The notes below the pieces were generated by a model. That model was not told the origin of the DNA and did no database searches. It saw only the letters and a program-made list of their open reading frames with translations. From Vairimorpha necatrix (lineage: Eukaryota): a stretch of 64,000 nucleotides of DNA. The translations under genes were made by a program, and so were the position numbers. Where the stretch lies: contig CP142726.1 in assembly GCA_036630325.1 (NCBI GenBank), positions 620,001-684,000 of the forward strand. Reading direction: 5' to 3'. Positions 3,677 through 62,027 of the stretch are shown here, piece by piece. The first letter of the stretch is position 1, and the number at the start of each line of letters is the position of its first letter.

Positions 3677-6256
3677 GGTTTTATTCATAAATACTTTGGC
3701 TATTGCATATCTTAAAAAATAATCTATTGCTGTTAAAATATATAACCCTTCTATTGGTCTTATAATGTCAAAGGCTACATTTTGCCCCGGTTCGAAAGCT
3801 TCAATGTGTCTATAACCCGTTATTCGTACCGGATCGTATTCTTTACACTTAAAACACTCTTTATCAATTCCTTTTACTTCTGTTAATTTAATGTTTTTCT
3901 CAGGTTCATTTTCACATAAATATTCGTAAGTTGCTTTAGCTCCTCTAGGTTATAGCTTTTCATGAGTTTTTACTATACTCTCTTTATTGTCAGTTACGCT
4001 GATATTGTTTATTTCTTTATGTTGGCGAGATAAAGCATCGACATGTGCCAATTCCGTAGGTTTTTTGTATTTATTTTCACAGTCATACATCTGAATATTT
4101 TCTATTTATCTAAAAATTCGTGATGACTTAATTTCCCCTTTTAGGTTGAGGGCTTCTAACGCTCTGTGGTCTAAAAAAAATCTTTAACCAAGTAACCAAT
4201 ATTTAAAATGCTTATTGCCCATAATGAAGCCAACATTTCTTTCTCCGTGATCGTATAATTTAACTCTGAGTCTCTCAGTTGCCTGGATGCAAATGCTATG
4301 GGTCGTTCTAATCCATCACAAATTTGACTGAGTATTGCACCAAGTCCCGTGTTGGACGCATCAGTCGTTAAAATAAATTTAGAAGATAGTTCGGTTTGAT
4401 ATAAGCATAATCTAGTTAATATTTTCTTAAGCGTATTAAATGCCCGTTCTTGGCTTTCTCCCCATTCAAACTGTTGATTTTTCTTTAACAAAAGCACTAA
4501 CGGGTTACAGATATCATCACGATTCTTTTTAAATTTTCTATAATATTTAATGACTCCTAAAAATTTTCTTCCGTCGTTTGCGCTCTTGGGTGTTTTGTAT
4601 TTATTAATTCCTTCTGTTTTATCTATTATTGGTCTAATTTTATTTTGTGAAATTTTATGACCTAAAAACTCAACTTCTTCTTTTAAAATTGTGATTTTCT
4701 TTCTATTTGCAGATAATCCTGCTCTATTAAGCAGACGGCATTTTTTAGCCAAAGATTTATAATGCTCTTCAATAGTTTTGGAGTAAATCAAAACATCATC
4801 AACATATGCAAAACATATTCTCCCAATTTCCTCATTCAAGACTTTATCAATTACTCTTTGAAACATTGCCGGAGAGTTTTTAAATCCCATTGGCATACGG
4901 ACATATTCATATGTTATATTTTTTATTCGAAAAGCCGTTTTTTATCTGTCCGCTTCACGTAGTTTGGCACGAAAAATGCTTCTTTAAGATCTATTTTCGA
5001 AAAGTATTTGCTTTTACCTAAGCAATAAATTAATTCCTCCATCCTAGGTAGGGTATAACTATCTAGCTCAACAATATTGTTGAGTTTAATTAAATTTATG
5101 GTCAATTTTACGCTACCATCTTTCTTTTCAACAGGCCTCACATTATTTAACCATGTTAATTTCAACTCTCAAATGTAATTATTATGTAATAATCTTTTTA
5201 TTTCCACTCTACTTTCTTCTCCCAAGCCTGTGAAATTCTATTGGATCTTTCGACAACCTTTTTTTCCTTTTCTGTGTCAATTCTACGTTCAAAACCTTTA
5301 ATTCCTTCTGGTTTCCATGTGCATAGCTTGTCAATTTCGTCTTTATAATTACAAATCTTTGATTCTTCAATTTTCTGACCCCCATGGGACATCCAATGCC
5401 TTCCTATAATAACTGTTTAATCTGAGCTTTTTGGTAATATATAAAATTTTTCTCTGTAAAATTTTCCTTTGGAGTTGAAATCTAACCATACATATTCTTT
5501 TATTTCAAATTCTTCTAATAAACAGGTATACAGACCGATTGGTTCCTTTAGTTTATTATCCTCTCTTTTACTTTATTTAAAATTTTAAGTGCAATGAAAC
5601 CTACCTCCGAACTAGTATCAAATATGGTTCTAAATTTATAACTTTTTATTTAAATATAATTGTCTTTTATTATATCATCAATCTTTTCAATATTATTAAT
5701 GTCTTTTTTCCTTTTATCTTCTCTTACAAATGTTTTTTGGCTCTTTCTATGCGTAGCATCTTTTATTATTTCTTCTAACTTGTTAACTATTTCTGAAAAT
5801 TCATCATTTATAACCGAAAACTGTACAGTGGCTTTCCTAATTTCTACCCGCATCTTCTTTAATCCAAGAAAACCGACTAATAAAATTACTTCCTCATCTT
5901 CATTTATGCTGTCTCCAAATTGCTTCATTCTTTTAAAATAATCATAACATGTTTCATTCTTCTTCTGGAATTCTCTAAAAAATCTCTTTTAGAAATTTTA
6001 TTGCAAAGCTGGCAATCATAAATTCTTTCCAATCTTTATAAACATATTTTTTTAAATTTCTTGCCTTTTCAAATTTCTCATGGGCATCAAAAATTTAATT
6101 GCTTGCCCTTTCAAGTAAGTAATCAATCTTGTACTCATCGGACAAGGACTTAAAGTTTTTATTCCTTACTATTCTTTTCAAATTAGCTATTATATCTTTA
6201 CCCGATATTTGTAGGGTGAGATTAGCCAACAACTCCATAATGTCTGTTTTTTTCAT

Positions 6257-7810: not shown

Positions 7811-7879
7811 TTTTTTTAATTTCAATGGCCTTTTTTTTTAATTTCAATGGCCTTTTTTTTGAAAAAAAAAACCCCCCTA

Positions 7880-8883
7880 ATGCCCAGAAAAGCGAGATCT
7901 TCGGTCACTCCTGATGTCTTAAAGCTCATTGAAAGACATATAAAAAACGAAAACTTGACCCTAAAAGATATTGCTACGACATTAGATTTAAGTTATAAAA
8001 GAATTTGGAGGATCTATAGGAAAATGTTAGAGGAAGAATCCATTGTTTCTACAAATACAACAAATCGTTCTAAAGTTTCAGCTCATAGAGTTTTAAAGCC
8101 TATCGACATTGTGCTTAAAAACGTCATTGCACGTAGTAATGACAAGACTCTAAGTGAAATCAAAGAAGAACTTTATACAATAGCAAATGTTTCAATGTCT
8201 TTGTCAACTATTTCGAGAAAGTTGAAATATCTAAATATTACAAGAAAAAGACTGTCTCTAATTCCTGCAGAGCGTAATTCGCAGGACAAAATTGATAAAA
8301 GAGCAGAATATGCTATGGAAATATCAGGATATTCACTAGAAAATTTGATTTTTTTGGATGAAACTGGATTTAATGCTCATACCACAAGGCATTATGGGTT
8401 TTCATATAAAAATAAAAAAGCATTTAAAACAGTCCCTGCAAATCGAGGCAAAAATTTAAGTTGTCTTTGCGTAATTTCAAAATCGAATATTATAGCATAC
8501 GAAATGAAAAGGGGCGCATATAATTCTGCTCTATTTGTCGAATTTATTGAAAGACATCTTGTAGAATTTTTCCAAAGAAATCCTCAAAAGATTTTAATCA
8601 TGGATAATGCTAAATTTCATCATTCAAGAGAAGTTTTAGGAAAGCTAAGAGAATTAGGCATATCTTATGTTTAGTTGCCTCCGTATTTCCCACAGCTTAA
8701 TCCAATTGAAGAGTTTTTTCTATGATAAAATCAAGGTTTTGTGCTATAAGGAACTCAAATAATTCTGTTGAAACGGATTTGGAACAAGTGCTGAACGATG
8801 ATTTCAGCCTTTCGTGTAATGGATTCTACACTAATATGTTAAGATGGTTAGAAATGGCAAGGCAGAAAAACGAGTTTATCTAA
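7880..8883 (+). pseudogene. Tc1/IS630-like DDE transposase with premature stop and frameshift
   Basis: HTH N-terminus, FLDETG, IMDNAKFH, TAG at 8672-8674, then LPPYFPQLNPIEE. Confidence 0.9.
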
Positions 8884-10543: not shown

Positions 10544-11773
10544 AATTAATATTTTTTATACACCATAGACATACAAATAATAACTTCCTAAAAATAAAAC
10601 CGATTTCAAAAATTTGAAGCATCCAGAACGGACAGAAAAATCTCAAAAAAAAATAAATTTTTAATTTTATAACCAAAAACAAAAAAAGCCTTTACCTTTT
10701 CAAAAGTTCCATTAGTTACTTACTTATCAAATCTTCTCATTATTATGCATTCAAATGTATAATAAAAAAGCTCGTATTTTAGATTAAATAATGAAAATTC
10801 ACAATGTTATAAATATTAATATTTACAAAAAATCTATAAAATATATACTTATATAGATAAATTAAATTTATCTTGCAAATGTTTTATTTTACAGTTCACA
10901 AAATGATGTCATTACATGGATATAAATGTTTCAAAAAACATAAATATAAAAATGATCTCATATTTTATCTATAAAAACAATAGAGTTACAAAAAATACAA
11001 AACAATTGCACGTCATAGAAAAGATAAATCGTGAATCTTAAAAACAAATATAATATTAAATTAATGAAAATGCTCTAAACACAATAAAATTTATCACTAT
11101 GACACGGTAAGATATTTTTTTTATTACATATTTAGAGTCTGTTTAAGCACAAGTTTTTTAAACGATTAAACTAAATTTGCTTTTATGTTTTATATACAAT
11201 TCGATCAAATTTGGAAAAAATGTAACTATTTTTTTGTACCATATTAATATTTATTGTTATACATTATTTAATTAGAAGTTGACCCTCAACACTTCCTCTA
11301 TATGTATTGTCTCAATTAATAGCTTTATTTTTAATATTCTTTAAGTTTATTGTTCTTTCAAAATGTATTTTTTATTTTCATCCCTTGCTATATGGATTTT
11401 TTCCACGCTTTAACATCATTTTACCTACACTTGTGATCCATTCTTTATTAAATCTCAACTCTCTACCTAAGTCTTTTCTTTTTGTAAATCCAACCTTCGA
11501 TTCTCTCCTTTTGGTTTATACCTTTGCTTAAACTTTCTAGCATACTCGCTACATTCATCACTATATAGAAATACCTCATTTTCTTTATCTTTCTATGCTT
11601 CTAGTGGTGTACGTTTTGGTGCCGTATATCGAGGTTGTGTGTTTTTATGGCCTATCCTACGTTTTCTTTGCGTTTCTTTTATTTTATTAAATCATTGCTC
11701 CCTAGCGTCCCAATACATAGTTACATCCTTCTATTGCTCCTAAAATCTTTTACAGTAACTTTGGTTAACTAAT

Positions 11774-14140
11774 TGTTACCGGCTGTGTTGCACACACCAA
11801 TAATCAGACTAAAACTGAAAGATGAAACAAATCATAATGATCTGAAACATGATTGTTTCAGATCCGAAACTAAAACTATTTAAGAAATCTTAAATAGAAT
11901 AAACATGCCAAATAAATATAGTTCTTCTTCTAATAAAAAGCCTTCTTCAATAACCAGCTCTCCTTCTGGTAACACTGGCTACAACTATTCGAAATCCAAC
12001 GAATTGGGCCACCTACTAGAAAAATTAGGGATATCTACTAACACAATGGTGAAATTCAACGGTACCCAAGGCGAGAACGCATGGGTCTGGATTAATCAAT
12101 TTAAATACCTCGAGGGAGAATGGAATGATATAAAACTGCTCAACTACATTAAGAGATACTTAGGGGAATCAGCTCTCCTATGGTATGAGGCTGTAATTGA
12201 AGACGAGGTGGAAGGATATATGGAATTCAAACAGAAATTTCTAACAAAATATGGGAAAGAAGAATTCCGGGAGGGAATTAATCCCATTAAAATGCTTTAT
12301 AAGAGACTATACTCTGGACCTGTAAATATGAAAATTGAAAACTTTATATACGAACTAATGAAGCTTAACAAGAAAGCAGGAGTTAGCGTGTCTGAAATTA
12401 CGGAGGAGTTGGCTAGATATTTCCCACCGTCACTTAAAGAAAAGGTGGAAGAGGCAACGTCATGGGACGTTGTACTAAAGATTTATGAGAGAAATCACAA
12501 ATTTATTGAGAGTTCAAGGCAGAGACCTGAACAGAGTAGGCCAAGAGAAGCGAGGACTTTGAGGTCAGATACTACAAGGACTAAAGAGAGTCCAAAAAAG
12601 CTAGTATGCTATAAGTGCGGAGGTGAGCACTTGCTTAAGGACTGCAATAAACACGAGGAAATAGAGGTGTTTTTAATCGAGGCAGATCCGGTGTCAAGAG
12701 ACACGAACGATACTACAGTCGAAGGAACCGTTAATGGCGATGTAGTAAGAATGCGCCTGGGATCAGGTGAATCCAACTCATTTGTTGATAAAACCTTAGT
12801 TAATAGAAAGAAACTAAGAAGGGCTAAAGGAGGCCATTGCATTCGAAACTATCCACAGAGTATAGACAAAAGAGTGTCAAAGCAAGAAGATATGCGGATT
12901 AAAAAAAGAGCAAGTATAGAAACAGCTCAGACCCCACTTCAGTATCGAAATCTGAGATTAACCGAGATGAGTGCATCGACCAGCAGGCATATTGTTTGCT
13001 TACAAAAGAACATACTTGGACACGATGGAAACCACCCAAACATTGCGCAAGTAAATAAAAGCGCGGGAAGAGACGACTATACGAGCACCAAGGACTCATT
13101 AAAATCGATCGTAACGAAAAGAGACGATGGTGTGCGCCTATGCAATGAAGATACAAAAGCAAAAGAAACCATGATTGAAGAAGTATGTCAACCTCAGTTG
13201 TTTGAAGAATCTTTTACATATTTGAGTACAGTGAAATTGAACCGCCAGCTCGACCCGGAAAGGCGATACTACCAAACACCCGCTGTAATCGCAACGGAAG
13301 GGGTCGACTGTATGCAACTATGCATAGATTTTAAAGAGTTTAATGGAACAAAGTACAACAAGGCCAAATCTGGATTAATTGCGCGTTGGGCTTATCTAAG
13401 TAGCACGAAAATAAACCAACAGCTCGACCTGGAAAACAGATACTATCAGATACCCACGAGAAAGGAATTAAGTGGGTATGAAGGAAATAAAGAAATCCCT
13501 ATACGACCATTTAAAAGCGTGGCGAGCGAGGAAGATACGGTCGCTCGAAGCGCTCACGCATCAATCGTGCCAAAAAATGATGTTGTTTTTAGGCCGAAAT
13601 TTACAGGAAAATTACTGTGGAATATCATCCCCTATGGATTAGATAACTCGAGAAAAAGGTTAAAAAGAATAACGTACAATATCCTCAAGAAGCCACGTAA
13701 AAAGTTCCTAATGTCTTACCATACATTATATAGAAATGAAAGATTGGATAAAATTTATATAGGACCCTACATAGTCACAAAAAACAAACTAAAAGGAGCC
13801 TATGAAGTAAGGAGTCTTGAAGATGGAATAGAACACTCTATAAACCGAAATGATTTTGTAGTATATAAGAAAGACGACGATATATTGGAGAATATAACAT
13901 CTTCCCTGGAAGTGAAGCCTTGTTCTAAGGAGGGGAGAGTGTTACCGGCTGTGTTGCACACACCAATAATCAGACTAAAACTGAAAGATGAAACAAATCA
14001 TAATGATCTGAAACATGATTGTTTCAGATCCGAAACTAAAACTATTTAAGAAATCTTAAATAGAATAAACATGCCAAATAAATATAGTTCTTCTTCTAAT
14101 AAAAAGCCTTCTTCAATAACCAGCTCTCCTTCTGGTAACA
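11774..14140 (+). mobile_element. Young non-autonomous Gypsy-derived LTR element (2367 bp)
   Basis: Apparently identical 201-bp LTRs 11774-11974 and 13940-14140; TSD CTAAT; PBS-like TGGCTACAAC; PPT AAGGAGGGGAGAG. Confidence 0.97.
11905..14049 (+). CDS. Gag fused to vestigial pol segments, 714 aa
   Basis: Gag (FNG..W), CCHC knuckle CYKCGGEHLLKDC, protease-like MRLGSGESNSFV lacking the Asp, RT fragments (LCIDFKEFN, QLDLENRYYQIP, IPYGLDNS), GPY/F module LDKIYIGPY; no YxDD and no integrase DDE core. Confidence 0.85.
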   Translation: MPNKYSSSSNKKPSSITSSPSGNTGYNYSKSNELGHLLEKLGISTNTMVKFNGTQGENAWVWINQFKYLEGEWNDIKLLNYIKRYLGESALLWYEAVIEDEVEGYMEFKQKFLTKYGKEEFREGINPIKMLYKRLYSGPVNMKIENFIYELMKLNKKAGVSVSEITEELARYFPPSLKEKVEEATSWDVVLKIYERNHKFIESSRQRPEQSRPREARTLRSDTTRTKESPKKLVCYKCGGEHLLKDCNKHEEIEVFLIEADPVSRDTNDTTVEGTVNGDVVRMRLGSGESNSFVDKTLVNRKKLRRAKGGHCIRNYPQSIDKRVSKQEDMRIKKRASIETAQTPLQYRNLRLTEMSASTSRHIVCLQKNILGHDGNHPNIAQVNKSAGRDDYTSTKDSLKSIVTKRDDGVRLCNEDTKAKETMIEEVCQPQLFEESFTYLSTVKLNRQLDPERRYYQTPAVIATEGVDCMQLCIDFKEFNGTKYNKAKSGLIARWAYLSSTKINQQLDLENRYYQIPTRKELSGYEGNKEIPIRPFKSVASEEDTVARSAHASIVPKNDVVFRPKFTGKLLWNIIPYGLDNSRKRLKRITYNILKKPRKKFLMSYHTLYRNERLDKIYIGPYIVTKNKLKGAYEVRSLEDGIEHSINRNDFVVYKKDDDILENITSSLEVKPCSKEGRVLPAVLHTPIIRLKLKDETNHNDLKHDCFRSETKTI

Positions 14141-14215
14141 CTAATATTCTTTATCTACAACAAATAGCAAATTTATTACTAATTTTTTGTCAACATTATC
14201 TTTCTTATATTTTTT

Positions 14216-18113: not shown

Positions 18114-19393
18114 GGAGGAAGGATCCGAAACACCCCCCCCCCTCAGAGGGTGTTCACTTTATTTTTTCGAACCCCAAAATTGAAGTGCAAAAAAAGAAGG
18201 AGCAAGAAGGAGACAAAAATTTCTAACCACTTTAAATATTAAAAATATAAAATAAATAAATATTTAAATACAGAATTTAATTTTAAATTGATTTATTTAA
18301 TCAAAAGTGATTTTCATTAATTTTTCGAACGTATTTTTTGGATTATTTCTTTTAAAAACAAATAAGTTTAACCAAGGTGTAATATGTTTTTTGGACCTAT
18401 ATCTAAACGGAATTCCTAATTTTACGCCTGCACATGTACCTTCGATGTGGTTTGTGTGTACACCTGTCGTCAAGTTTACAAAACCAATGGAGTGGTTAAC
18501 AGTAAAATGTCTGTATATGCCAAATTTGAAAAGGTTTACGTAGCCTTTCCAAAAATCCGTATATATGATACTTCCTGCTTTAACATATTTGAGAATTACA
18601 CTTTCTAGTGTAATTGCCTTCCTATTTTCTACTTCTACTAACACTATTTTCCTTTGTGTGGTCCTTTCAACCATCCCAAGAACCCATACTCCATCGACTT
18701 TATGTCCTCTATGATTTTTTCGCTTACCGAACTTAGATTCGTCTATTTCAACTATGATGTCTGGACCACCAATCATTTCATTGCTTTTTAGGTCTTTTGC
18801 AATGTTTTTTATTGTTCTATATACCGCCTTTTACTTATTGATAATATTTTAATTATTGTTTTAGCGTGAGTATTGTTTATAAACAGAAATATTGCTTGGC
18901 TTATTTGTAACCAACTTAATTTTGTTCGGAAAAAAGGTTTTTTATACACTAAAGTCATTTCAAACCTACATCTTTTTTTACTACATCTTATAAGATTTTG
19001 TGTTTCCTTTGTCTTTTTCATATTACTAAGACATTTTGGACAAAATCTCCCTAATATGCATAAATCAATGCATTTAAGCATGATTTCTTCTACGTCTTTA
19101 TATTTTTCTTCTGGCATTTCTTAAAAGTAGGGGCAAATAACCAAAATATAAAGTAAAATATAGAAAATTTAATATGCCCAAAAAAACAAGTTCTAATAAA
19201 GACGGGAAGTATTTTCTGGTTTAAAATTAAATTCTGTATTTAAATATATATTTATTTTATATTTTTAATATTTAAAGTGGTTAGAAAATTTTGTCTCTTT
19301 CTTGCTCCTCCTTTTTTTGCACTTCAATTTTGGGGTTCGAAAAAATAAAGTGAACACCCTCTGAGGGGGGGGGGTGTTTGGGCATCTTCAGCC
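18114..19393 (-). mobile_element. Merlin transposon with ~170-bp TIRs; transposase frameshifted
   Basis: Long inverted repeats 18114-~18287 and ~19220-19393; TSD AAAAAAAT; ORFs 18809-19117 and 18297-18776 (EIDESKFGKRK, YTD, HTNHIEG). Confidence 0.95.
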
Positions 19394-26029: not shown

Positions 26030-27815
26030 GCGGGGAAGCTGAGAAATTTGGAGGGAAATACATATATAAATATGTTTTATGATATTGAACACGAAAGTGT
26101 CTATGTAACAAACCATCTTCTATTTATTGATATCTAAAGCTCCTCACAGAGAACGATGTTGTTTTAAAACTGATGAATGGGGAAACTAAAAAATTTTCTC
26201 GGCCGTAGGATAGAAATGAACTGAAGTAAGTCTGCGACTAACTGTATTGATTGTGGCGAAGATGAAGTAGTACTAGAAGGGCATCGAGAATACAAATACC
26301 TTGGAATAACAGAGGATGCCTCTTGTGCTGTCAAAAGAGAGACTTTTGAAAAAGTAAGAAATATGATCCTACAGAAAGTTGAAAAACTGTGCAAGACCCA
26401 ATAAAATTGTAAGAAGATGATTCAAGTTTTTAATTAGCATGCAATATCAGTAATAAGTTATAATGTAGGATCTCTAAAATTAGAACCAATAGATTTCAAA
26501 AGTCTCGATTTTGATATCCGACAGGTACTTATCAAGTAACAGGTAAATCTGCTGCCAACCTGCAAGAAATACTATACCTATCTGGATCTGAAATGGGTAG
26601 AGGCCTCATAAGTATCGAAGATAGAAGCGAAAGTATGCTTCTAACATTTATAAAACATTAGATGAGTCTAGAAATGGCTCACTAATACGGGCAGCGATAC
26701 TTAAGGTAGAGGCAGAGAGCAAATCCCACTTGTTTACAATTAAAGAGTATTTAAGAATTATGTTTAGCTTTGCAGGAGAGATAACGCAGAAGATGCTAAT
26801 AGAATCCCAAAAAGAAGCGCTTTACAACAAAATTAACATAGGGACAAACTATGGAAAGTTGTTTAAAGCTAGAGACAATGATTTAGTAAGCATTAGGGAC
26901 TCTTCTACCTGTCTGGTTAAAGGAAACAACCAAGCTAGATCCGAAGCAATTTATTGCTTCTCTACCGATAGAAATATCTTCTGTGGACAAGAGATACAAT
27001 GTCCCCATTGTGGATCTCATAGGAAGACCGTGGATCATTTAGCTACCAAGTGTGATCGAATGCTGGGTTTTGATTATATTAAAGAACACAACGAGGTAGT
27101 TAGATGCATTTATCTCTTACTATGTATTAAATATGGGGTTAAGAAGAAAAGGAAAATACGTGGACACTCAGTACAAGAGATCATGGAAAATGATCGTGCA
27201 GAAATAAGAGTAGATACGAGAATATCCACTAATATAAAGGTAACCCATAATAAGCCTGATATTCTTGTGTTTGACAAGAAGAAGAAAGAAATTTTAATAG
27301 TTGAAGTTGATATAACCAACCAGGATCGACTTACTATAGTTTAGAATGAAAAACTGAAAAAATATGACCTTCTTGCAAATGAACTGGGACTAATACATAA
27401 ATCCCGGACAAGATAGTTTCTTATGTAATGACATGGGATGGAGTGGTGACCAAATATCACAGAAAGTACATCAGGGAGCTAGAAATTCAACCCTACCTGG
27501 AAGCATACATCCAGTCTATTGTGATGAAGAAGACTCTAGAGTCCATCTCTTTGGAACGACGACGAGGATACGATCAGGAGGATGCAGGAGAAGAAGTGGC
27601 TAGAGCTGTAATTCACAAGCGACTATGGCGACTGTTAAAGAAATGGTGTCGGCAAAGGGAATGAAGCTGAAAAGTAAAGTTGGAAAACATTAATAATTCC
27701 ACAGAAACCAAAGTCTGTGAAAGCTAAACCCCATGAGCGATACCGGGGAAAGCTGGCCTATGAATATCTAATCTTAATGATAAATTAACCTAATAAATCT
27801 TTTATTTTTTACAAA
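26030..27815 (+). mobile_element. 5'-truncated non-LTR retrotransposon with restriction-like endonuclease (R2/R4-type RLE group), decayed
   Basis: RT C-terminal NHLLFID and YKYLGI; CCHC CPHC..TVDHLATKC; HNEVVR; KPDILV..ILIVEV (PD-(D/E)xK type); 3' UTR. Confidence 0.9.
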
Positions 27816-28134
27816 AAGATCTTTGGAATATCATAATAGAATTTGTCGTAGGAGCACTGGGCTCCTACATGTTTGACATTTTTTAATATTTGAAACTTGT
27901 ATATTTTACTTCTAAGCCACATGGAAGGAAACGAGATGAAAACAAATTAACAATTAAATATCGACATGACGACAATAGCAAGGCTATTAGTGATTTTAGT
28001 GATGATAAGGGCTGAGACATTATGATGTGGCTAAAGAAGGTAAACATCCTGTCTTAGAATGCAGAATTATCAGAGAACGCTATTTTAAGCGATCGTAATT
28101 AAACTTACGGAATTGCCAAAACGTACTTAATATT

Positions 28135-28466
28135 TGTCCTGTATAAACGGGACTTTGCTATATTTAAAATAGCTTTCTTAAATATTGTTAATATTAAGAT
28201 ATTTAATGGTGGTCTCTTTGTTTTTCTTATACTCCATGCCTTTCACTGAAAGACTTTCTTTTATGGTTTATCTTTAATTTATTAATTGTTGTCAACACTA
28301 AACACAAACATTGGCGTACTTTCGAATGTAGTAGCAGCCGTGCAATTTTCGTTTGTTTGTGCGACTCATCTTGACAGGTTGCTTGTGACGCCCGACGCGT
28401 CATTAAAGATATGTGACAGGTGATGTTTATGACACATGCCCTTGGGATGTAGTAATATACATCACA
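28135..28466. mobile_element. Solo LTR (332 bp)
   Basis: TGTCCTGTATA...TATACATCACA inverted termini; perfect 5-bp TSD ATATT. Confidence 0.75.
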
Positions 28467-29752
28467 ATATTTATAACTAATTAGAACATTGCCAATATTA
28501 CTTTGAAAAGTTTAATATTAAATTTTAAAAACGTTTTGGTAATCGAACAGACAAAGACGAGATTCTTGACCGCTTCTTAGCCATCAAAACGGTAAATTCA
28601 AACGAAGAATATGTAAAACTGTTCAAAGTATCTACCATTTGTTCGAAACTGGATGCATTTCACTTCAATCGCTGATAAGGATGATTATTTCAAAGTCCCC
28701 GGGAACTTTAAATCTTGTTGTATCAATACTCATGTTGCGCTTCAGAATGAAATCCCCTTGGCCAACAAGCGGAGGAGGTGACCTGGATGGCTTTCCCGAG
28801 AGAATTTTTTTTAGTTTTGGCTTAAAGATCTTTATTCATAATAAACATTAGGGGTAAATACATAAATTTCTAAATAATACAATATCCCACTAGTCAAGAG
28901 GAAAGCTCGTCTATAATTACTTGCAGTTGTAACGCATGCCTTTTGATTATATTATTTTTCGTTAATATATATGAATTTTACCAGACTTGCTAATAATTAT
29001 TTCTCTAACCTTGAATCTGGGCAATCCCATAGTTCGAACTACTTCCTCTTTACTTAAATCTATATCATCTTATTTTAATATTACCCTTTTCTCTGTTGTA
29101 GTTTTCTTCACTGAACTTAATTCTTTTCTTAAATTGTATTCCCATAAACATTGATGATTTTCTTTTTTTTAATGCCTCTTCAGGTATAATCTCTATGGCA
29201 GTGTGATATGACTCATTATATAATTTTATTGCTCTTGCTAGTTTTTTTGAAAAGGTTTATCCTATTTATTCTTGTATATTAGATCTTGTAGAATTCTGTT
29301 GAATCTCTCAACACATCCATTTGATTTATGATGCAACGGAGAGGTGTAATGCATTTCAAAATTTTTTTCTATTGCAAAATCTTGGATTTTTTCACTCGAA
29401 TTTTTTAAATTGACCTAAATTTAACATCTAAATTTTAATTTTTTGTGAAGTTCCTTTACAAACACAGGGCATTCCTATCTTGTCTTGACTTGATAATTTT
29501 TGGAATCGCATTCTCAAAAAATAAACAATTCCTAAAATTATGTAAAAATTTTCTTTTGGCCTTATATCCATGGCCATCTTTCTACTACTTTCTGAGCTGT
29601 TACAAACATAGATTATTTATTTCTTTTTGGATTGTATTGTTTGCATACTACACATTTTAAAATCTCCTCTTTTATTATTCTGTCCATTTTATTAAAGCAA
29701 GTATCATGTGAAAGCAGTATATGTTTTATTGTCTTTTCGCCTCTGTGTAAAC

Positions 29753-32566
29753 TGTCATGTCCTCAAAACCATGACATCTGTGTTTTACTGTGTTAAAACT
29801 TTAATCAGTAAAACACTGCCCCGAACGAATAGTCTAAGGCAGTGATCTCTAACGATCGGACATGAAACGTTATGTTTCATAAATAAATATAAATAGTCCA
29901 AAAAAGTTAGAAGACACCGAGCATGAAGAGTAACTTTAATAACAAATCAAATAAAAAGAAATATAATACAAATATTTTAGAAATGTATTTAAAAAACGGA
30001 GATATTACTCCGGTTCATGTCATTTTGAATTCAAAGACATTAAATGAACAAAACGAAAAACGAAATAACGAAGATGACTATATACAAGTCAAAATCAAAG
30101 TTCCAGACTCGGACCTGGAATTTACGAAGAAATTAAAAATAATAAAAAACATCGAAAAATTCGATTTCATTCCTTGGTTTAAGGAATTTGAAGAAATAGC
30201 CACACAGAACAAATGGAATGCTGAACAAGGCATCATGATACTACGAAATTTAATTACTGATCGACGCCTAGAAGCGGATATTTTCATTACAGATGCAGCA
30301 ACAACCAAAAGAAACTTAATTAAACATATTTTTGAGCAAGATGCTAAAGAAATGTTGCAAGAAGCCTTTAAGGTAAAACAAATAGATTTTCTTTTTATAG
30401 AAAACTATTATGAAAAGATTTACAACAAGATAAGTATCTATAGCGCTTATTACGAAATAAGCAAATCGGAATTTAACAGACATTTAAGCGAATGCTTTTA
30501 TCAAGGGTTAGGAAGAAACTCTACGTTTGAAATAATAAAACATAACTTAGGCGAGAACGTCTTAAATGCTTATAATCACCTAAAAAATATTGAGAAAATG
30601 ATTCGAAAGAAAGCAGAAACTAAGAAAATAAACAAGGTGTCTAATGACGAGCCAGTATATCAAGAAAGAGAAGGATCATACAGTAAAAAGTTTTCAAACA
30701 AGACGAATAACCCAAGATCTTCGTATATAAATAAATGGTGTTCTATGCACAAAAACACTAGCCACGACACCAAAGACTGTTATTACAATAAAGACCGACA
30801 AAATGAAAATAAGAAGAAAGAAACGAGAGAAAATCTTAAGATAATCAAAGAACCAATAAAAGTAATAAATGGAATTGAATTAGAAGGTTCAATTGAAAAG
30901 AAAGAAACCAGATTTTTAATCGATACAGGTGCCACAAGAAATTTTATTAGTAATAAAAAGATCAAAGAATTGAAATTATCACCCATTGAAGATGTGGAAA
31001 TCCAAACAAAATTTGCCAATGAGCAAAAAGAAATAACTAACAAAACAGTACTTGTTAGAATAACATTAAAGAATCTAATGAAAGAAAAATACGTAAGATT
31101 TTATATATTAAAAAACAACAGCGATGATGTAATATTAGGAAATGAATTCCTAGTCGCAAATGAAGCAGTAGTAAATTACAAAGAAGGAACAATTTATGTA
31201 GGAAGGGAGAGTTTGAAATTTCTACATAACGACGAATGTTGCGAATTAGACGCAATGTTATTTGAGAAAATGAATGTGTGCAAACAGGTAGATGAATGTG
31301 CATTAAAAACAGAAAATAAAAAGAACTTTAAAAAAGATGAAAAAGAAAGATTTTATATTGACAGAAAAATGACTAAAGAATTTATTAAATTTGTCCACGA
31401 ATTGTCGGGACATTGCGGGCAAGTAATCATGTATTTAAACTTAAAAAGATGGTACAACATCATAAACATTAGAACAGTGATCCGCAAGATATGCAATCAG
31501 TGTATCGTATGTAAAGAAAACAAGGATTTTAAACAACAGAATCTAGAAAGAAATAAAATAGATAGCAGTGCACCATTTGAAATAATAAGCACAGATATTT
31601 TTGGTCCTTTTCTCCTGGAGGAGTTTGAGGGCGACTCTCTAAACCATAAGGGTTATATCTTGACCATAACCGATGTGTTTTCGAGATTCACGAGAATTTG
31701 GTTTGGTGAGAAGTTTAGGAGTGAGGAAGTTATTATGTGTTTAAACGAATGGAGTGATGATTTTGCGAAGCCTAAAGCGCTAATTTCGGACAATGGTCCG
31801 CAATATAAAAGTAAAAAAATGAAAGATTATACTAATAAAATACAAATCGAACATCGGCTAATACCGATATATTACCCTCAAAGCAATGGAATTTCAGAAC
31901 GTATAAATCAAACAATTGCAGAAGTGCTGAGAATGAATATAGGAAAGAATATAAAACACATTATTATGCAAATTGAACATCGGATAAATAATAATGTTAA
32001 TACCACACTGGGAATTGCGCCTATAGAAGCAATTTATAAGAATAGTTTTTATGACATTGAGAAAAGGGTTAATGTGCCATTTTTGCGAAACATACCTGCA
32101 GTTGAAGTGAACTATAAGCGATGTATCGCAGTAAATGACATTGTATACTTAAAAAATCATAGCAATAATAAACTCGAGCGGAAATACTATGGGCCGTTTA
32201 AAGTTATGGAAATCGGTAAGAAAGGAAGTTGGGTTCGACTTAAAGACATGCCCAACTGGGTTCATATTAAACAGTTGAAGCTGTAGGGGGGCAGACTGTC
32301 ATGTCCTCAAAACCATGACATCTGTGTTTTACTGTGTTAAAACTTTAATCAGTAAAACACTGCCCCGAACGAATAGTCTAAGGCGGTGATCTCTAACGAT
32401 CGGACATGAAACGTTATGTTTCATAAATAAATATAAATAGTCCAAAAAAGTTAGAAGACACCGAGCATGAAGAGTAACTTTAATAACAAATTAAATAAAA
32501 AGAAATATAATACAAATATTTTAGAAATGTATTTAAAAAACGGAGATATTACTCCGGTTCATGTCA
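29753..32566 (+). mobile_element. Young RT-less LTR element (2814 bp)
   Basis: 270-bp LTRs 29753-30022 and 32297-32566 (2 differences seen); TSD TAAAC; PPT-like AGGGGGGCAGAC; no TGG-type PBS. Confidence 0.97.
29923..32286 (+). CDS. Gag-protease-integrase polyprotein lacking RT and RNase H, 787 aa
   Basis: Knuckle CSMHKNTSHDTKDC; FLIDTGA and ILGNEFL protease; HHCC (HELSGH..CIVC); STDIFG / SDNG / SERIN DDE; YYGPF GPY/F; no RT motifs. Confidence 0.93.
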   Translation: MKSNFNNKSNKKKYNTNILEMYLKNGDITPVHVILNSKTLNEQNEKRNNEDDYIQVKIKVPDSDLEFTKKLKIIKNIEKFDFIPWFKEFEEIATQNKWNAEQGIMILRNLITDRRLEADIFITDAATTKRNLIKHIFEQDAKEMLQEAFKVKQIDFLFIENYYEKIYNKISIYSAYYEISKSEFNRHLSECFYQGLGRNSTFEIIKHNLGENVLNAYNHLKNIEKMIRKKAETKKINKVSNDEPVYQEREGSYSKKFSNKTNNPRSSYINKWCSMHKNTSHDTKDCYYNKDRQNENKKKETRENLKIIKEPIKVINGIELEGSIEKKETRFLIDTGATRNFISNKKIKELKLSPIEDVEIQTKFANEQKEITNKTVLVRITLKNLMKEKYVRFYILKNNSDDVILGNEFLVANEAVVNYKEGTIYVGRESLKFLHNDECCELDAMLFEKMNVCKQVDECALKTENKKNFKKDEKERFYIDRKMTKEFIKFVHELSGHCGQVIMYLNLKRWYNIINIRTVIRKICNQCIVCKENKDFKQQNLERNKIDSSAPFEIISTDIFGPFLLEEFEGDSLNHKGYILTITDVFSRFTRIWFGEKFRSEEVIMCLNEWSDDFAKPKALISDNGPQYKSKKMKDYTNKIQIEHRLIPIYYPQSNGISERINQTIAEVLRMNIGKNIKHIIMQIEHRINNNVNTTLGIAPIEAIYKNSFYDIEKRVNVPFLRNIPAVEVNYKRCIAVNDIVYLKNHSNNKLERKYYGPFKVMEIGKKGSWVRLKDMPNWVHIKQLKL

Positions 32567-35500
32567 TAAACAAACTCAAAGAACCTTACTTATATATTTT
32601 TTTTGTTCACTTTTTTCACAATCTACGTAATTTATTTTCATTAAGACATTTTCCTCCGTTTTCTCCAACTCTGTATTCGTGATGTTTCTACTAAGACAAA
32701 CTACATGAACCATCTCATTTCCTTTCCTATATTTAATATTAAGGTTAAACATACACAATCTACCTTGCCATCGCTGAATTTAAGACATTCTATATCTCCA
32801 TTATTAATAACATCTAAAGCTTTATGATCTGTAATAACATCTACAGGTGTCCCCAAAACAAAATATTAAAAATGTTCTAGTCCTAATAAGGTAGCTGGAA
32901 ATTCTTTTTTCTAGAATACTATACTTTCTCGTGTTCTTTTAATCTTCTCAAAACAAATGCTATTGATATCTTTCCATTTCATTCGTTTGAGTAATAATTA
33001 CTCCTATACCATGATTAAAAGCATCTGTTTATAATTGGAGAGGCTTATTAAAATCCGGCCGTTTCAAAACAATTTTCTTCTTAAGTTCTCCCTTTAATGC
33101 TTCAAATGCATTCATCGCTGTCTCATGCCATATATATTTTTTCTTTTTCTGCAATAAACCACACGAGGGTGTTTCAAAAATTGCACATCCTTTAAAAAAT
33201 TTTTTATAATAATTTATAAACCCATAAATTCTTGTAGTCGTTTTCGGTCTTGGGGCATCTTTGTATCATCAATGCCCTGTGTAACTGAGTTCTTTGAATA
33301 TACCTTATTATGAGTGATTATATGGCCTAAAAATTCTACTTTTTCTTGCTTATAAATTGTTTTTTCGGTATAAATCTCCAAATGATTCCTGTCTAAAATG
33401 TTAACAATATTTCTAAAGACGGCCTCATATTCTTCTTCACTTTTACTAAAAATTAATATGTCATCTACGTAAACAAAACACGATTTACCTATTTCTTCAG
33501 CCAAAACTCCATCCATATGCCTTTGAAAAATTACTGGGGCATTTCTAAAGCCCATAGGCATTACATTCCACTCGTACAATCTATGTCGTACTTGAAAAGC
33601 TGTTTTATGTCGGTCTTCTTTGGCCAACGGGATTTGAAAGAAACCATCCTTTAAATCAATCTTACTGAAATATTTCATATCTAAAAATATACTAAGATAG
33701 TATTTATATTAGGTAAGACGTATAGATCTTGTTCTACTAATTTGTTTACTGCTACAAGGTTGGTTGTGACTCGGATGCTTCCATTCGGTTTAACTACAGG
33801 CTTATATTATTTAGCCACATGGACTTAGATTCTGAAATGTAGCCTTTCTGCAGCAACTCAGTTACTGCCTCATCAATTCCTGATCCAATTTTCTTGGGCA
33901 TATCATAAACTTTTTAAACAACATTATTGCCCTCTTTTTTCGTATTTCTGCTTATTTGACACTCTCCACTTTTTCCATTAAATTTTTTATGGTTCTCTTT
34001 CTACAAATTCTTCTCTGCTCCGACTTTTGGTAAAATATAGAATTTCTGTCTTAATCTTTTTCTTTTGTATACAGTTTTCAAAAAAAAAATGTTCTATTAT
34101 ACAAAGGGGCTCATCTTAACAAGTATAAACATTCATTTTTTGATGGTTACTCTTTGTTTTAACTTTTAGTAATCTCCTAACAGCATCTGATGTGAAATTA
34201 TGATAAACAAGGTGTTTAGTGTACCTTAAATAATAATACATTGATATGAATTGAATTATTTTAATTAATTAAGTCTTGAACTTTTTCCGGCGTCTCCTAC
34301 TATTTCATTAATTCATTTGTATGACATGTTATTAATTCGCGGGCTCTACGGATTTTAGATGAATTTCTGATCTTCCACAGTTGTAACAAGAAAACTGTTT
34401 CGGTCCCTATATCTTTGACCTTTGAAGCTGTGACAATATACCTTTTTTTCAGTAATATTTCTTTTTTAGATTTAAGGTACTTTTTTTCTTGTTCCTTCTT
34501 TTCCTTTTTCTTCTTTTTTTCTGCCTGATAAATCTCTTCTAACAAAAATATCATTAATTAAAACCTCATCTAACACTTTACTCCTAATTATTAATCTTTG
34601 TACATCTAAAATTTCCCCTTTCGGTCCATCTAAAATTATTTTTATCTTTTCTTCGCTTTTTAATTTGTAAGGCTTTGCTAATTCCTCCGCAAATTTAATG
34701 TATTCACAAATTGTTTGATTATGTTCATGCTTTAAACATAACAAGCCGCCCATCTCTAACTTATTTGAGCTGCAAACCCTCTCTAACTCCTGTTTAAAGC
34801 GAATCTAGTTCATGCAGTTTTTCTTGACGTTGAACTAAAAACCATTCATGATTTCATGGCATGCTCTGCTAATAATAATTTTTTTCCTATTCGCTCATGC
34901 CTTTAAGAAAGAAAAAAATTCCAGTCTCTTTAGCTCTAGAGCGGCATTTTCCACCGTTATTTCCCTTGTCATAGTCGCAAACTAAATATTCTCGACCATT
35001 TTTTTTAAGAACTTTATTCGTAGTAAAAAATTATGGGTAATTATATAAATTTTTTAATAATTCAACCAATAAGAAAGCATCTACTGAAGCAAAGACGGTT
35101 TATCAGAGAATAGAAAGGAAACTTGAGAAAAGGTGCTTTTCTTCACTATCCACAGTCAAGAAGGTCACCACAGAGAATTGCAATGTTGTATAAGCAATTG
35201 GAAGGGAAGGGATGGAGAAAGGAAAATTGGCTAATGCGTTGGAATAAAAATACAACACGAGAGAAAAATGGACGAAGAGTATGTAAACTTTAAAATCTAT
35301 ACATATAATTCTCTTATATTTAATAGAACTCTTTTCTTTATATACTCTAATCTTTCAAAGTGAGCTCTCCATCTGACACTCTTTAGACACAGGAGCCGAT
35401 ATCTCACTTTTATACATTGACCAGATATCAATTTAAAATAAAATAATTTTTACAAGTGCGAAAATCAGATCGGCCGCTGGCACTTTCATTAATATAATAG

Positions 35501-36653
35501 GCGAAATAATATACCTTAGATTAAGAGTGTTCGGTGAAGAAATTAAATGCTCATTATTGGTTTGTATGATACTGCCTGACTATTCTATCCCTGGAGATGT
35601 TATATTAAAATTCTCACGCTTAGTTTAAAAATTCTAAGAATTTGTTTACCTTCAACGAGAATACATAGTATCCCACGGGAGCAAGAGTTACTACAGAAAC
35701 TAAAACAGAGCATAGAGGATAAAAAATATTGAATCTAACTCTAGTTATTAGGGTAGAATTTATTTCAACCAATAACTTCAAAAATTTGTTACAAAAAGAA
35801 CAAAATAATTACCAAATTTTAAGGGGGCTTCGGAGTGACGATAGCACTAGAACCCATTAAAGGTGCAACATTGCATTTTATGGTCACAGGAGAAGATCCT
35901 TTAATAAACCAAAAGAACTATCGGATCCCTATACACTATGAACAAGAAATCACTGAAGACATTCGCCGAATATAGATTAGGTGTTATGAGAAACAAATAG
36001 CCCATGGTGATAAAGACTCGTCCTATTCAAAAGCCCGATAAACTGTTAAGACTATGCATTGACTTCTGAGCTCTAAACAAAATAATGATAGGAGACAAAT
36101 ATCCACTTCCTCGAATTGATGAATACTAGACAGACTAGCTGTAGCAAGTACATTTTCTACCCTAGATGCTGTATCTGGATACTATAAGATGTGTATGAAC
36201 GAATCAGATAAATATAAAACAGCGTTTGCATGGAAGGTCAGACATATGAATATAACAGAATGCCTTTCGGGTTATTTAATGCTCGCGATAAATTCTAAAG
36301 AGCCATCCATAGACTGATCAGAAATCTGTGCAATGACTTTGTTTTCCAAATCTAGTCTTAAATTATTTTTTAAAGAACGACAAGGAACACGGAAAACATC
36401 TTTTAATTGTGCAGGATAAATCGGGGGAAAAACGTAGAGTATTTAAGAAATCAGAATAGACATTTTTTAATGACGAAATAAATATTCTAGGGAATCTTGT
36501 TTGAAGAGATAATTAATTCCCGACCCTAAAAAGATCAAGACAATTTAAAAATTCCCATTTCGAGAGAACCAAAAAGCTTACGGCCATTCTTGGGGTTAGT
36601 TAATAACTATAGAAATATGTAGCATCTATTTCCGAGTTAACAGGGCCATTTTG

Positions 36654-37945: not shown

Positions 37946-40309
37946 CATTTTCTAACCTTCTTAAGAGAGAATCAAAAAATAGTGTAAAAAAGTACTTTAG
38001 TCAGAAGATTTACATATAAAGTTTGCCAAGATAAAGCAAGCTCGTACAGGCGAAAGCAAAATGTGACAACCAGGCCTTTTAAAAAAATTTATCTTATGAC
38101 GGATGATTCTGAATGTAAATTGGTGCTGTCAATGCATAAGCTGAAGGTAATGGTTTAGAGAAAGCGATTTCCTTTCTAGTGAAAGACCTGATAATTGTTC
38201 AATGAAATAAACAGTTACAGACAAAGAACTTCTGGCCGCCGCTAAAGCTATTAATAGCTTTGACACTTCTCTCCTATGGAAGAATTTACATTTAAAACGG
38301 ACCAAAAAGCACTCACATATCTATGGGAATCAAAAAATTACACAAGCAGAATCCTAAGATGGCCAAAAACGTCATAATAATAAAAATCTAACTTTGAATA
38401 TATAGAGGATGAGGCCAATATCGCGGATGGTTGTAGTAGAATATTTGGCAAGGAAATAATAATGGCAAGTATCAAAAAAGTTTTTTCAAGAAAAGAAAAT
38501 GAGAAGATGCTTAAAGCCTTTACATAGAAACAGGACATGGATCCTTAATAACATTAAATTCACATTCAAAGAAAAATATTATGGGGAAGGACTTCCTAAA
38601 GATATTGAAAAGCTGGTTTCAGTGTGTGTTATTTGCTTGAAACTCAATATAAAATAAGAAACATAAAGCATATAAAAATAAAGACAAGTATTAACAACGA
38701 GCTATAGAGTTTGCTTGATAGGATTAAGTTCATATAATAACACCAATAATTTTATCTTAGTAGAGATCGATCATTTCAGCAAATGTATAAAGACAAAATA
38801 CTTAAAAACAAAGAAGCTGGAACCATTAGAGACGCTATCAAAGAACTAATAATTAGGAAACATATTACACTGTAAACAATGTCGTCGGAATGCGGACTCG
38901 AGCGCAAGAACAAGCAAATAAATAATTTGAAAGTTAAACATGGGCTTGAATGGAAATACTCATCATTGAACACCACTATGTAGTAGGATATGTTGATAGA
39001 GTAAACCAGACACTTTGGACAAATCAAAAAAAACTTGCCAACTACGACGAAACTTATAAGATAATTGCGTTAGAAAAAGCAACGCACGCAGTAAATTTAT
39101 TTTTAATTCGGCCTGTGAAACTTCCCTATACATTTTCAATATGCAAGATCTCCTAAATTTAAGATTGATAATTATTTTGAACCGAAACCAATAAAATGCT
39201 TAAGAACATTCCTGACTAAGAAGTGAAACGAAAACAGTGCGAAGTATAAAAAAAATATAGAAACCGCCTATTGATTTTTAAATTAGAGATGAAGTTTTAG
39301 ATTACAGAGAAAGCAAAAATAATAAAATGGAAGCGAATTAGTTGTGGGATATGGAATAACGGATAGATAATTACCAGGAGGCTTTATGACCAAAATTAAA
39401 AAGACTAAGTAGAGTGAAAAAAGCTCGTATTAGGCATGATCTTTCTTTTGGGGAATCAAGATGTCGTGGAGCCCTTGGGCTCCTACATGTTTTACATTTC
39501 TTAATACTTAAAACTTTTACATTTTACCCCTAAGCAACATGAAAGAAAGGAGATAAAAACAATTAAATATCGACAAAGTTTTTTGTTTTTTTGCTCTTTT
39601 TTCATAAATTGAAGAGAGAAAATGCTAGGAAGGAGTCAAAACAAGTAAAATAAAAATTTTAATAATTCGTCAAAGACTGAAGCCGAGGAATTCCTTTGGG
39701 GTATATACCTAAACAAATAAAGTTTTGAACTATTGACTGATCTTTTTCAATAAATATAGAATTTTAAAAGTGACCAATTACCTTTTATGGTATTGGTATG
39801 AACTCCCGTATTTGAGTTTCTGAAGTGCAATGAATGATTAACCATATGATGTTGGTTTAATATATGTGGCATCCCACATGTCAAACATATCATTTTTGAC
39901 ATTTCTTGATTTGTTTACCCTGTAAACAAACAAAAAAAACTATAAAAGAAAATTCCATACTTAGGGGTATGGAAGATAAGAGAAATAAACTATTTACTCA
40001 AAACTTATCTTTATTGGAGTTGTACTTTCGCAGGAGGTACGACAATATAATACTCAAAGAATGATAAGATCCCCCAATATCGCTATATAATACTATCTCT
40101 TTTCACATATTTTACTAAAGATCTGTAAGTATTTTTAATCCCTTTTTATATGTAATATTATTATTCTACGTTAATAGAACGTCCGATCGTGCAAAACACC
40201 AGAAGCCATTTGTTAATTTACCTCTGTTGTATTTATTTTTTCCATTTTTTGACTCGTCAATTTCTACTATATTGCCTTCTCCACCCGTAATGTTTAGAGA
40301 AGTTAATAA

Positions 40310-52715: not shown

Positions 52716-53624
52716 TTATTTAAATCTATCTGGGCCGAGTTGGGGTGCATCAATAAATCTAAAATTTTTATTTAGACCGGAAATGAATTTTACATCTTCT
52801 TGAGATATTTCAAATAAGTCTCCATTTTCTTTAATATGTTGCTCACTTGTGCTCTTAGGAATTACAAGGATGTTTTTTGAAATTAGATAACTTAATAGAA
52901 TTTGTGAAACAGACTTATTATATTTTTTTGAAAGATTTATAATTTCTTTGTCTTCTTTGAGATTATATTTTTTCTTGTCTGTTCCTCCCAATGATGAATA
53001 GCTTACAACATTGATATTATTTTTATGACAAAAGTCTACTAAATTTTCTTGTGTAAGATATGGATGTAATTCAATTTGATTGATAGCTGGTTTGATTTTG
53101 CACTCCTTTAATATTTTCCCAAGATTGTATTCTCCGTAATTTGCTACACCAATGGATTTTGTCATTCCCTTTTCTACTAATTTTTCCATTTTTTGCCACA
53201 ATCCGATGCAGTCAAATTTATCTAGTACATTGTTACCTTTATCATCTGCGGAAGATTCGAAATTGTTATTTGTTCTAAACTTAACGGGCAGATGTATTAA
53301 ATATAAATCTATATAATCTAATTGAAGATCATTTAAAGTTTTTTGTAGACCCTTTTCTGGATTGTCGTGATAATTGCACCACAATTTTGATGTAATAAAT
53401 AATTCTTCTCGTTTTATTAGTCCTTCATCGAAAATTTTTTTCAAAGTTTCTCCAATGTATTTTTCATTTCCATAGATAAATGCGGTATCTATATGTCGAT
53501 ATCCGCATTTTATGGCACTTCTTACCGAAGTTTCAATTTTATCTTTGTCTGTAATCATCCAAGTCCCAAGCCCAACTACGGGCATTTCGTAACCACTGTT
53601 TAGTTTTACTTTTTTCTCAAACAT
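52716..53624 (-). CDS. Aldo-keto reductase (aldose reductase/GCY1-like), 302 aa
   Basis: MPVVGLGTW, GYRHIDTA.IYGNE, FITSKLW, YIDLYLIH (D-Y-K-H tetrad), KSIGVAN, NQIELHP, VIPKS. Confidence 0.97.
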   Translation of the reverse strand: MFEKKVKLNSGYEMPVVGLGTWMITDKDKIETSVRSAIKCGYRHIDTAFIYGNEKYIGETLKKIFDEGLIKREELFITSKLWCNYHDNPEKGLQKTLNDLQLDYIDLYLIHLPVKFRTNNNFESSADDKGNNVLDKFDCIGLWQKMEKLVEKGMTKSIGVANYGEYNLGKILKECKIKPAINQIELHPYLTQENLVDFCHKNNINVVSYSSLGGTDKKKYNLKEDKEIINLSKKYNKSVSQILLSYLISKNILVIPKSTSEQHIKENGDLFEISQEDVKFISGLNKNFRFIDAPQLGPDRFK

Positions 53625-59719: not shown

Positions 59720-60370
59720 CTTTATTATAAATAATATTTGTCTAGAAGATCCATATCTTCTAGCTTCAATTTGCGTATTTTTATGGAATATTTCTTAAAA
59801 TCAAAATCTCCCAAATATATTATTTTAATATTAAACATTCATAAACCATTTGTAGACTCTATATTCATGATAAAACTGATCAAATTCTTTAAAATCTATA
59901 GTACTCGGTCGAGAATTCGGAATTTTTGGATCTTCAATGTGTAGTTCTTTCAAATGTAAACGTGCAAAGTTTTTTACGACAGGGAATATTATTTTTAGAC
60001 ATTTGATTCTATTGTATTTCTTATCCTTAATGATACAATTGCCAATATTCATTAATAACACGTATCTCATAACTATATGTAGTGACGGGGTTGTATAAAA
60101 ATAGTCCATAATTATGAATATAATTAAAAAGTTCTTCTAAATGACTTGATTTAATATGGCTTTGCTTTATAGTAAGTGTTTCAAAGTCGAACAACTTTGA
60201 TATATCACTTATAACAGGCCTGTTACGACGTCTTAGTTTCACCCCTCCTTTGTTTTATCTAACTGGTCATTCTTCAATGAAGAAGTGCTCTTATTTATAC
60301 CAAGATTTGACATCATTTGATTCGAACTTCCGTAAACACAAGCATTAAATAAAATTTTTAAAAAAATCAT
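59720..60370 (-). pseudogene. Frameshifted paralog of 62028-62696
   Basis: Starts MIFLKILFNACVYGSSNQ after CCC; 1-bp loss in a G-run near 60243 and a second shift near 60100. Confidence 0.85.
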
Positions 60371-60487
60371 GGGTGCAAAAAAAAAAATATTATTTATATT
60401 AAAATTAAATCCATTTATTTATTTTTTTAAAAATGTTTTATAGAATTTAGATTTAGTGTAAATACAGATATAATAATTATAGAGAAT

Positions 60488-61800: not shown

Positions 61801-62027
61801 ATTCGTAAAGTAATTATGAGTCATACAAAGATTATACACATTATTTGACAAAAAAGGTTGGAAATTTATATATAACTTGTATATAAGTTTTAATTTGGGA
61901 ATGAACGAGGACACAGCCCAAATAAAACATCATTATATAAATTGTTGTTCGTAAAAAAATTTACGTAAAAGTCAAACCATGTAATACTATAAATTTAATA
62001 AAAAAATATTTTATTTTGAAATTCTGT

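Follow-up and report, generated by a model that had tools for sequence, protein, structure and literature searches.

We analysed a 64,000-nucleotide (nt) stretch of the genome of the microsporidian Vairimorpha necatrix (contig CP142726.1 of assembly GCA_036630325.1, positions 620,001 to 684,000 of the forward strand; hereafter the window, numbered from its first letter). At 29753-32566 the window carries a long terminal repeat (LTR) retroelement whose single open reading frame (ORF) encodes a Gag-like region, a protease (PR) and an integrase (IN), with no reverse transcriptase (RT) or RNase H (RH). The element and its borders comprise the following features.

29748-29752, +: 5' copy of the target-site duplication (TSD) TAAAC, a perfect 5-bp duplication
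29753-30022, +: 5' LTR, 270 bp, TGTCATG...CATGTCA, with ends TG...CA
29888, +: TATAAA in the 5' LTR, a putative promoter signal by motif match
29923-32286, +: single ORF of 787 amino acids (aa), Gag-like - PR - IN, with its ATG within the 5' LTR and its stop 10 nt ahead of the 3' LTR
29923-30882, +: Gag-like region, aa 1-320, homologous to the N-terminus of full-length polyproteins
29950, +: AATAAA in the 5' LTR, a putative poly(A) signal by motif match
30024-30035, +: perfect 12-nt palindrome TTTGAATTCAAA at the place expected for a primer-binding site (PBS); coding (I-L-N-S-K)
30739-30780, +: CX2HX4HX4C knuckle, aa 273-286, conserved in related polyproteins
30883-31209, +: aspartic protease (retropepsin), aa 321-429, with D334-T-G (Pfam)
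31321-31335, +: putative deletion junction, aa 467-471, with the post-PR linker on the left and the IN N-terminal extension on the right
31357-31524, +: integrase HHCC zinc-binding domain (Integrase_H2C2), aa 479-534 (Pfam)
31570-31878, +: integrase catalytic core (rve), aa 550-652, with D558 and D623, and E659 just beyond (Pfam)
31879-32283, +: integrase C-terminal region with a GPF motif (YYGPFKV), aligned with residues 1112-1254 of the full-length relative P0001
32285-32296, +: polypurine tract (PPT) AGGGGGGCAGAC, adjoining the 3' LTR
32297-32566, +: 3' LTR, 270 bp
32567-32571, +: 3' copy of the TSD TAAAC, a perfect 5-bp duplication

The two LTRs differ only at 29841 (A/G) and 29948 (C/T), that is, at 2 of 270 positions. 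A repeat search returned 273 nt, the surplus over the 270-bp LTR being chance matches of TSD, PPT and post-LTR bases. The TG...CA ends, the 5-bp TSD and the PPT ahead of the 3' LTR are those of a Ty3/gypsy element, and a 787-codon ORF in DNA of 30% GC combined with LTRs, TSD and PPT is far beyond chance. The insertion is thus a recent, structurally complete LTR element and, because its LTRs are near-identical and bordered by a 5-bp TSD, this copy was made by reverse transcription and integration in the recent past. In a public contig of a related copy of the flank (~87% identical) the element is missing and the break falls exactly at 29752, with a joint from 29752 to 32616, which fits the insertion boundaries.

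The ORF contains the complete set of PR and IN motifs, namely D334-T-G, H492..H497 (HX4H), C524..C527 (CX2C), D558, D623 and E659. With 35 residues from D623 to E659, it shows the DD35E core, the HHCC domain, the GPY/F C-terminus and the D-T/S-G protease motif of Ty3/gypsy elements. No RVT or RNase H family was matched in the 787-aa ORF by Pfam at E<=0.1, and in a tblastn search with P0001, the closest full-length relative, the matches were confined to its residues 5-476 and 932-1254, so that neither RT nor RNase H was detected in any reading frame of the element. The PR and H2C2 Pfam matches are separated by ~50 aa, none of which is of RT or RNase H origin by homology. A sequence-only reading of this DNA had described 270-bp LTRs with two differences and a perfect 5-bp TSD, one uninterrupted 787-aa ORF starting inside the 5' LTR, a PR that passes straight to the IN HHCC domain without RT or RNase H, and complete PR and DDE catalytic residues; each of these descriptions was confirmed.

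The Gag-like region matched no Pfam gag family. Its AlphaFold model has a predicted local distance difference test (pLDDT) score of 80, and the top PDB folds are the PNMA2, MOAP1, PEG10 and Copia capsids, all at E>=0.16; the fold search with this model gave no match reaching E<=0.001. The Gag label is suggested by the homology of the N-terminal ~300 aa and the conserved knuckle, with the predicted capsid-like fold as a hint, not proof.

Full-length relatives and other RT-less frames

An exhaustive HMMER search of 1.84 billion representatives gave 18240 matches at E<=0.001. The best was P0001, a 1254-aa polyprotein of Nosema granulosis that carries the NCBI name 'Retrovirus-related Pol polyprotein from transposon 17.6' and has the Pfam order PR - RVT_1 - RT thumb - RNase H - IN. 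ORF residues 15-471 align with P0001 residues 3-476 (46% identity) and ORF residues 467-787 with P0001 residues 932-1254 (48%), so that the element is 46-48% identical to P0001 over the Gag-like region, PR and IN. The two proteins also have in common the N-terminus ILExYLK..G....H.ILNS, the same knuckle and the C-terminal WV.L...P.WVHI.QLK. In P0001, PR and IN are separated by RVT_1, the RT thumb and RNase H, and these residues 477-931 (~455 aa) have no counterpart in the element. To the left of the junction lies the linker that follows the protease in full-length relatives as well, and to the right lies a short IN N-terminal extension. The element lacks the pol order PR-RT-RH-IN with a gypsy-type RT and, judged by the ancestry that its nearest relatives show, is a defective Ty3/gypsy derivative, not an autonomous member. 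A single-ORF type of microsporidian Ty3/gypsy element is described in the literature (PMC4202319).

A word-indexed protein search returned only two matches with the whole ORF and none with the Gag part (aa 40-330), so a close full-length sibling is not on record. Scanning metagenomes with an alignment of the family gave two distant loci, L001 (31% identity) and L002; the L001 match spans 2907 nt over 472 query residues and is therefore long enough to hold RT. A scan of viral contigs found nothing.

Loss of RT and RNase H is not confined to the window element. When the domains of P0001 were mapped by blastp onto 154 proteins, 43 had both PR and the IN core; RT and RNase H are present in 40 of these 43 and absent from three (P0007, P0050 and P0056), and Pfam agrees. 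P0007 (WUR05164.1, annotated 'reverse transcriptase') is a 613-aa V. necatrix protein that, like the window element, joins a Gag-like region, PR and IN core in one ORF without RT or RNase H. Known here from its protein alone, it is unlike the element in being only 33-36% identical and in its breakpoints: with the HHCC domain lost, PR runs directly into the IN core, and the IN C-terminus has a further deletion. P0050 is a partial 610-aa protein from a Henneguya salminicola record. Only scattered short fragments of it align across the RT/RNase H region of full-length proteins, and on our own reading of its sequence it appears to retain a short RT N-terminal stub. This record has a microsporidian-type Gag knuckle and may be contamination. 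P0056 (546 aa) has a layout like that of the window ORF, with PR, ~50 aa and then IN; its own contig was not found in a metagenome scan. A further database record, P0034, has PR and only the C-terminal tail of IN, with RT and RNase H absent.

We placed these proteins on a tree of PR and IN columns (quick IQ-TREE, 43 rows: the window ORF, P0007, P0050, P0056 and 39 full-length proteins, with the fragmentary P0077 excluded). The window ORF was sister to full-length P0001 (support of 91 in the Shimodaira-Hasegawa-like approximate likelihood-ratio test, SH-aLRT), and P0050 was sister to full-length P0044 (support 100). On this tree the RT-less label changes four times, and the starred branches force at least three changes. 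Grouping all four RT-less ORFs was rejected by the approximately unbiased (AU) test (p-AU 1.3e-10). Because the breakpoints and the full-length sisters differ and a common origin is rejected, loss of RT and RNase H with an open frame is recurrent in this clade. The same results rule out a single ancient Gag-PR-IN lineage, and the proposal of the sequence-only reading that the element represents a distinct Gag-PR-IN lineage did not hold, since the protein closest to it is a full-length PR-RT-RH-IN polyprotein and P0007, P0050 and P0056 arose separately. The 90% clusters of these three have no other member, and each ORF is on a single contig, so that none of them shows amplification.

The domain order of Ty1/copia and Gmr1-like elements is PR-IN-RT-RH, which resembles the window element in that IN follows PR. 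Unlike those elements, however, the window element has nothing after IN, its ORF ending 10 nt short of the 3' LTR, and its nearest relatives are PR-RT-RH-IN. We weighed a Gmr1/copia-type order for P0050 and P0056 and dismissed it for the window element, whose ORF ends at the PPT.

Origin of the RT-less form

We consider it likely that an internal deletion turned a single-ORF (Gag-PR-RT-RH-IN) microsporidian Ty3/gypsy element into this RT/RNase H-less derivative, which was copied with the polymerase of a full-length relative. A single in-frame deletion of ~1.37 kb would have taken out RT and RNase H exactly, fusing the post-protease linker to the IN N-terminal extension and leaving the LTR ends, PPT and leader intact. 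Because the element lacks RT and RNase H and yet was reverse-transcribed, the polymerase would have come from elsewhere. Its source would most likely be a full-length sibling with a compatible Gag, since in these elements every RT molecule is presumably made within a Gag-containing polyprotein. Template switching could have produced the deletion during the very cycle that gave rise to this copy, in which case the copy would have been defective from insertion; or the deletion could be older, and the deleted RNA would then have been packaged and copied in trans, perhaps repeatedly. The Gag-PR-IN polyprotein may co-assemble with the helper polyprotein, supplying capsid, protease and integrase. 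The intact motifs and the hint of a capsid-like fold make it plausible that the element could build particles of its own and integrate itself. We infer trans-complementation, the activity of the element's own proteins and the timing of the deletion.

The same LTRs and TSD would be seen if a full-length element had inserted here and lost RT and RNase H later by a local genomic deletion, leaving a single dead copy whose present form had never been mobile. We regard this as quite improbable: with only 2 of 270 LTR positions differing, there has been little time for an in-frame, domain-exact loss of 1.37 kb, and deletions in retroelements arise more commonly during reverse transcription.

An element of this composition would differ from the defective LTR elements that have been described, which keep nothing, only gag, or gag and protease. 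Semi-autonomous plant LTR elements retain coding capacity without RT and need an autonomous partner, as described for RLG_Sabrina_SA (GAG-Pro), for RLG_Quinta and RLG_WHAM (both GAG) and for TR-GAG (PMC9744471, PMC11302176), and sugar beet families with partial, decayed POL remnants are also reported (PMC13570524). The plant elements are like the window element in having partial intact coding without RT; unlike it, they have no integrase or only decayed fragments of it, are high-copy and have identified partners, although the supplements may list closer combinations. The window element falls outside the TR-GAG (GAG or GAG-Pro) class, which has neither RT nor IN, in that it has a motif-complete IN and no RT. 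It also falls outside the non-coding terminal-repeat retrotransposons in miniature (TRIM) and large retrotransposon derivatives (LARD), since its 787-aa ORF fills the internal region. We found no published element, in microsporidia or elsewhere, with an intact Gag-PR-IN frame that lacks RT and RNase H only, though supplements may hold cases. Loss of the polymerase alone, with capsid, protease and integrase kept in frame, would show which functions work better in cis.

Priming site, public contigs and possible amplification

The sequence-only reading had noted a palindrome after the 5' LTR in place of a TGG PBS. This observation stands: the palindrome occupies 30024-30035, and the ~30 nt that follow the 5' LTR are free of TGG. 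There are 64 perfect 12-nt palindromes in the window (~1 per kb, 30% GC), and the palindrome alone is therefore weak evidence. Four relatives, elsewhere only 30-48% identical, retain the peptide H-x-I-L-N-S that spans the LTR end and the palindrome (LNS in all four), and its conservation could reflect a cis signal that overlaps the coding sequence. A second, short LTR element elsewhere in the window (11774-14140) has TGG 1 nt after its LTR, so the missing TGG is a property of the studied element's family, not of the genome.

Tf1-like self-priming, which the sequence-only reading had raised, was not supported. Such priming is defined by complementarity of the PBS to the 5' end of the transcript. 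Like Tf1/Tf2, the element has no TGG of a tRNA 3'-end PBS adjoining its 5' LTR; unlike them, it shows no such complementarity when its post-LTR sequence is compared with the LTR. The 20 nt after the LTR have no complement of >=7 nt in the LTR, and none to tRNA-Met, the sole tRNA gene in the window. The best duplex between post-LTR and LTR sequence (-6.9 kcal/mol) was no better than those formed with shuffled LTRs (mean -7.4 kcal/mol; 56% of 500 shuffles do as well). We found no published description of a microsporidian PBS in a literature search that covered papers without their supplements.

Public sequencing contigs came from two runs (X1 and X2) of two studies with different organism labels, and the statements that follow cover the pieces listed for them. 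No RNA run was among the sequencing runs listed as containing the element. The internal sequence of the element is >99% identical in these contigs, with 2/1142, 4/997, 2/809, 0/260 and 3/555 letters differing. At 31212 the window's base is found in none of the aligned contigs, and at 32444 every aligned contig of both runs has G, against A in both LTRs of the window copy. The latter difference fits other LTR copies or strain variants more easily than a mutation that followed insertion; it is a hint of more than one LTR copy, and copies of the deleted form are not thereby shown. Depth was 508-778 over the element vs 15-82 over the flank in X2, and 9.5-13 vs 4-5.5 in X1; these values hint at several copies, but depth is not copy number and was not used. 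One X2 contig joins 30099 to 31572 and 31627 to 29949; it could represent a rearranged or tandem derivative in which leader sequence is combined with 56 nt from the integrase core.

Among the pieces listed, the PR-IN junction is unbridged: the X2 pieces stop at 31207 and restart at 31328. Small skips from 31271 to 31287 (X2) and from 31277 to 31286 (X1) are sequence variants just to the left of the junction. The junction lies in A-rich, low-complexity sequence, as might be expected if the RT/RNase H segment of a full-length element had been collapsed out of the assembly. We consider such an artefact very improbable, however, because the junction preserves the frame and falls between domains, and because three records from other assemblies show similar RT-less ORFs.

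A further explanation is that the element belongs to an amplifying, semi-autonomous Gag-PR-IN family, with many same-junction copies at different sites, that is under selection and borrows RT only, perhaps with unconventional priming. Several observations are consistent with it. The deletion keeps the frame and coincides with domain boundaries, and no PR or IN motif is damaged; RT-less ORFs have at least three independent origins, which could mean that such forms are viable; the internal sequence is nearly invariant in the two runs, while some flank pieces diverge more; and the second LTR element of the window, also defective, has identical LTRs. The absence of a TGG PBS here, where the second element has one, points in the same direction. 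Against these stand the lack of a second copy in the 64-kb window, the solitary clusters of P0007, P0050 and P0056, the negative outcome of the self-priming comparison, and the fact that intactness is expected of so young a copy without selection. On balance, we regard an amplifying family as possible but somewhat unlikely. Were amplification true, the element would offer a compact system for retroelement complementation in reduced parasite genomes; as a single copy it would be an ordinary element, already defective at insertion.

The deletion of RT and RNase H from a full-length Ty3/gypsy element, with copying by a relative's polymerase, remains the explanation that we favour, and several points weigh against it. 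The first concerns the frame itself: an in-frame outcome has a prior of 1 in 3, and the open frame alone is no sign of selection. From the LTR divergence we estimate only ~8 substitutions for the 2.3 kb of internal sequence, and in so young an insertion the intact ORF is thus by itself no sign of selection. The other points concern the supposed relatives and the primer. The 64-kb window holds no further copies or solo LTRs of the element, and no full-length sibling with the same LTRs was seen there, the window containing three old RT remnants and no intact RT ORF. The protein collections searched hold no relative above 52% identity. Finally, the searches for TGG, tRNA-Met and LTR complements yielded no candidate primer for minus-strand synthesis.

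A broader proposal would be that microsporidian single-ORF Ty3/gypsy elements repeatedly spawn parasites of RT, which have a working Gag-PR-IN, co-assemble with a helper, carry out their own integration and amplify, with the window element as an active example that is possibly non-tRNA-primed via the conserved palindrome. We put this forward tentatively and hold it to be unlikely in this full form.

A second LTR element and the surroundings of the window

The remaining features of the window are as follows.

11774-14140: second short LTR element, with LTRs at 11774-11974 and 13940-14140; 11769-14145 with TSDs
11905-14049: 714-aa ORF of the second element, beginning in its 5' LTR and ending in its 3' LTR
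3659-5228 (-), 32582-33800 (-) and 35863-36613 (+): degenerate RT/RNase H remnants from other Ty3/gypsy families, with 25-37% identity to the polyproteins used as queries
2636-3583 (+), 18297-18776 (-) and 7847-8674 (+): DNA-transposon ORFs, two with IS1595/ISXO2-like (Merlin-type) DDE and one with DDE_3 (Tc1/mariner-type) and a helix-turn-helix
19728-19802: tRNA-Met (CAT) gene, the sole tRNA in the window, with no complementarity to the post-LTR sequence of either element
52716-53624, -: aldose reductase gene, 94% identical to Vairimorpha necatrix, with other microsporidia as the next matches

The LTRs of the second element are identical (0 differences in 202 compared repeat bases) and its TSD is CTAAT. 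The PPT AAGGAGGGGAGAG precedes its 3' LTR. Pfam found no domain in the 714-aa ORF, which does contain a CCHC knuckle, a protease-like motif with Gly for the catalytic Asp, an integrase-tail GPY motif and two copies of the RT-like motif LD.E.RYYQ.P. The second element is a very recent insertion, heavily rearranged and non-autonomous. Its identical LTRs, its TSD and an ORF without any Pfam domain indicate that defective elements are currently mobilised in this genome. The studied element lies directly beside the second of the three RT/RNase H remnants (32582-33800), and none of the three is an intact helper.

No Rfam family was found in the window. Many divergent contigs of both X1 and X2 align at 27500-28500 and 34277-34778, which are probably high-copy repeats. 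The segment 27844-27930 recurs at 39462-39548 with 80% identity, and 59838-63883 consists of two tandem copies of a ~2.3-kb unit that are 80-92% identical in blocks.

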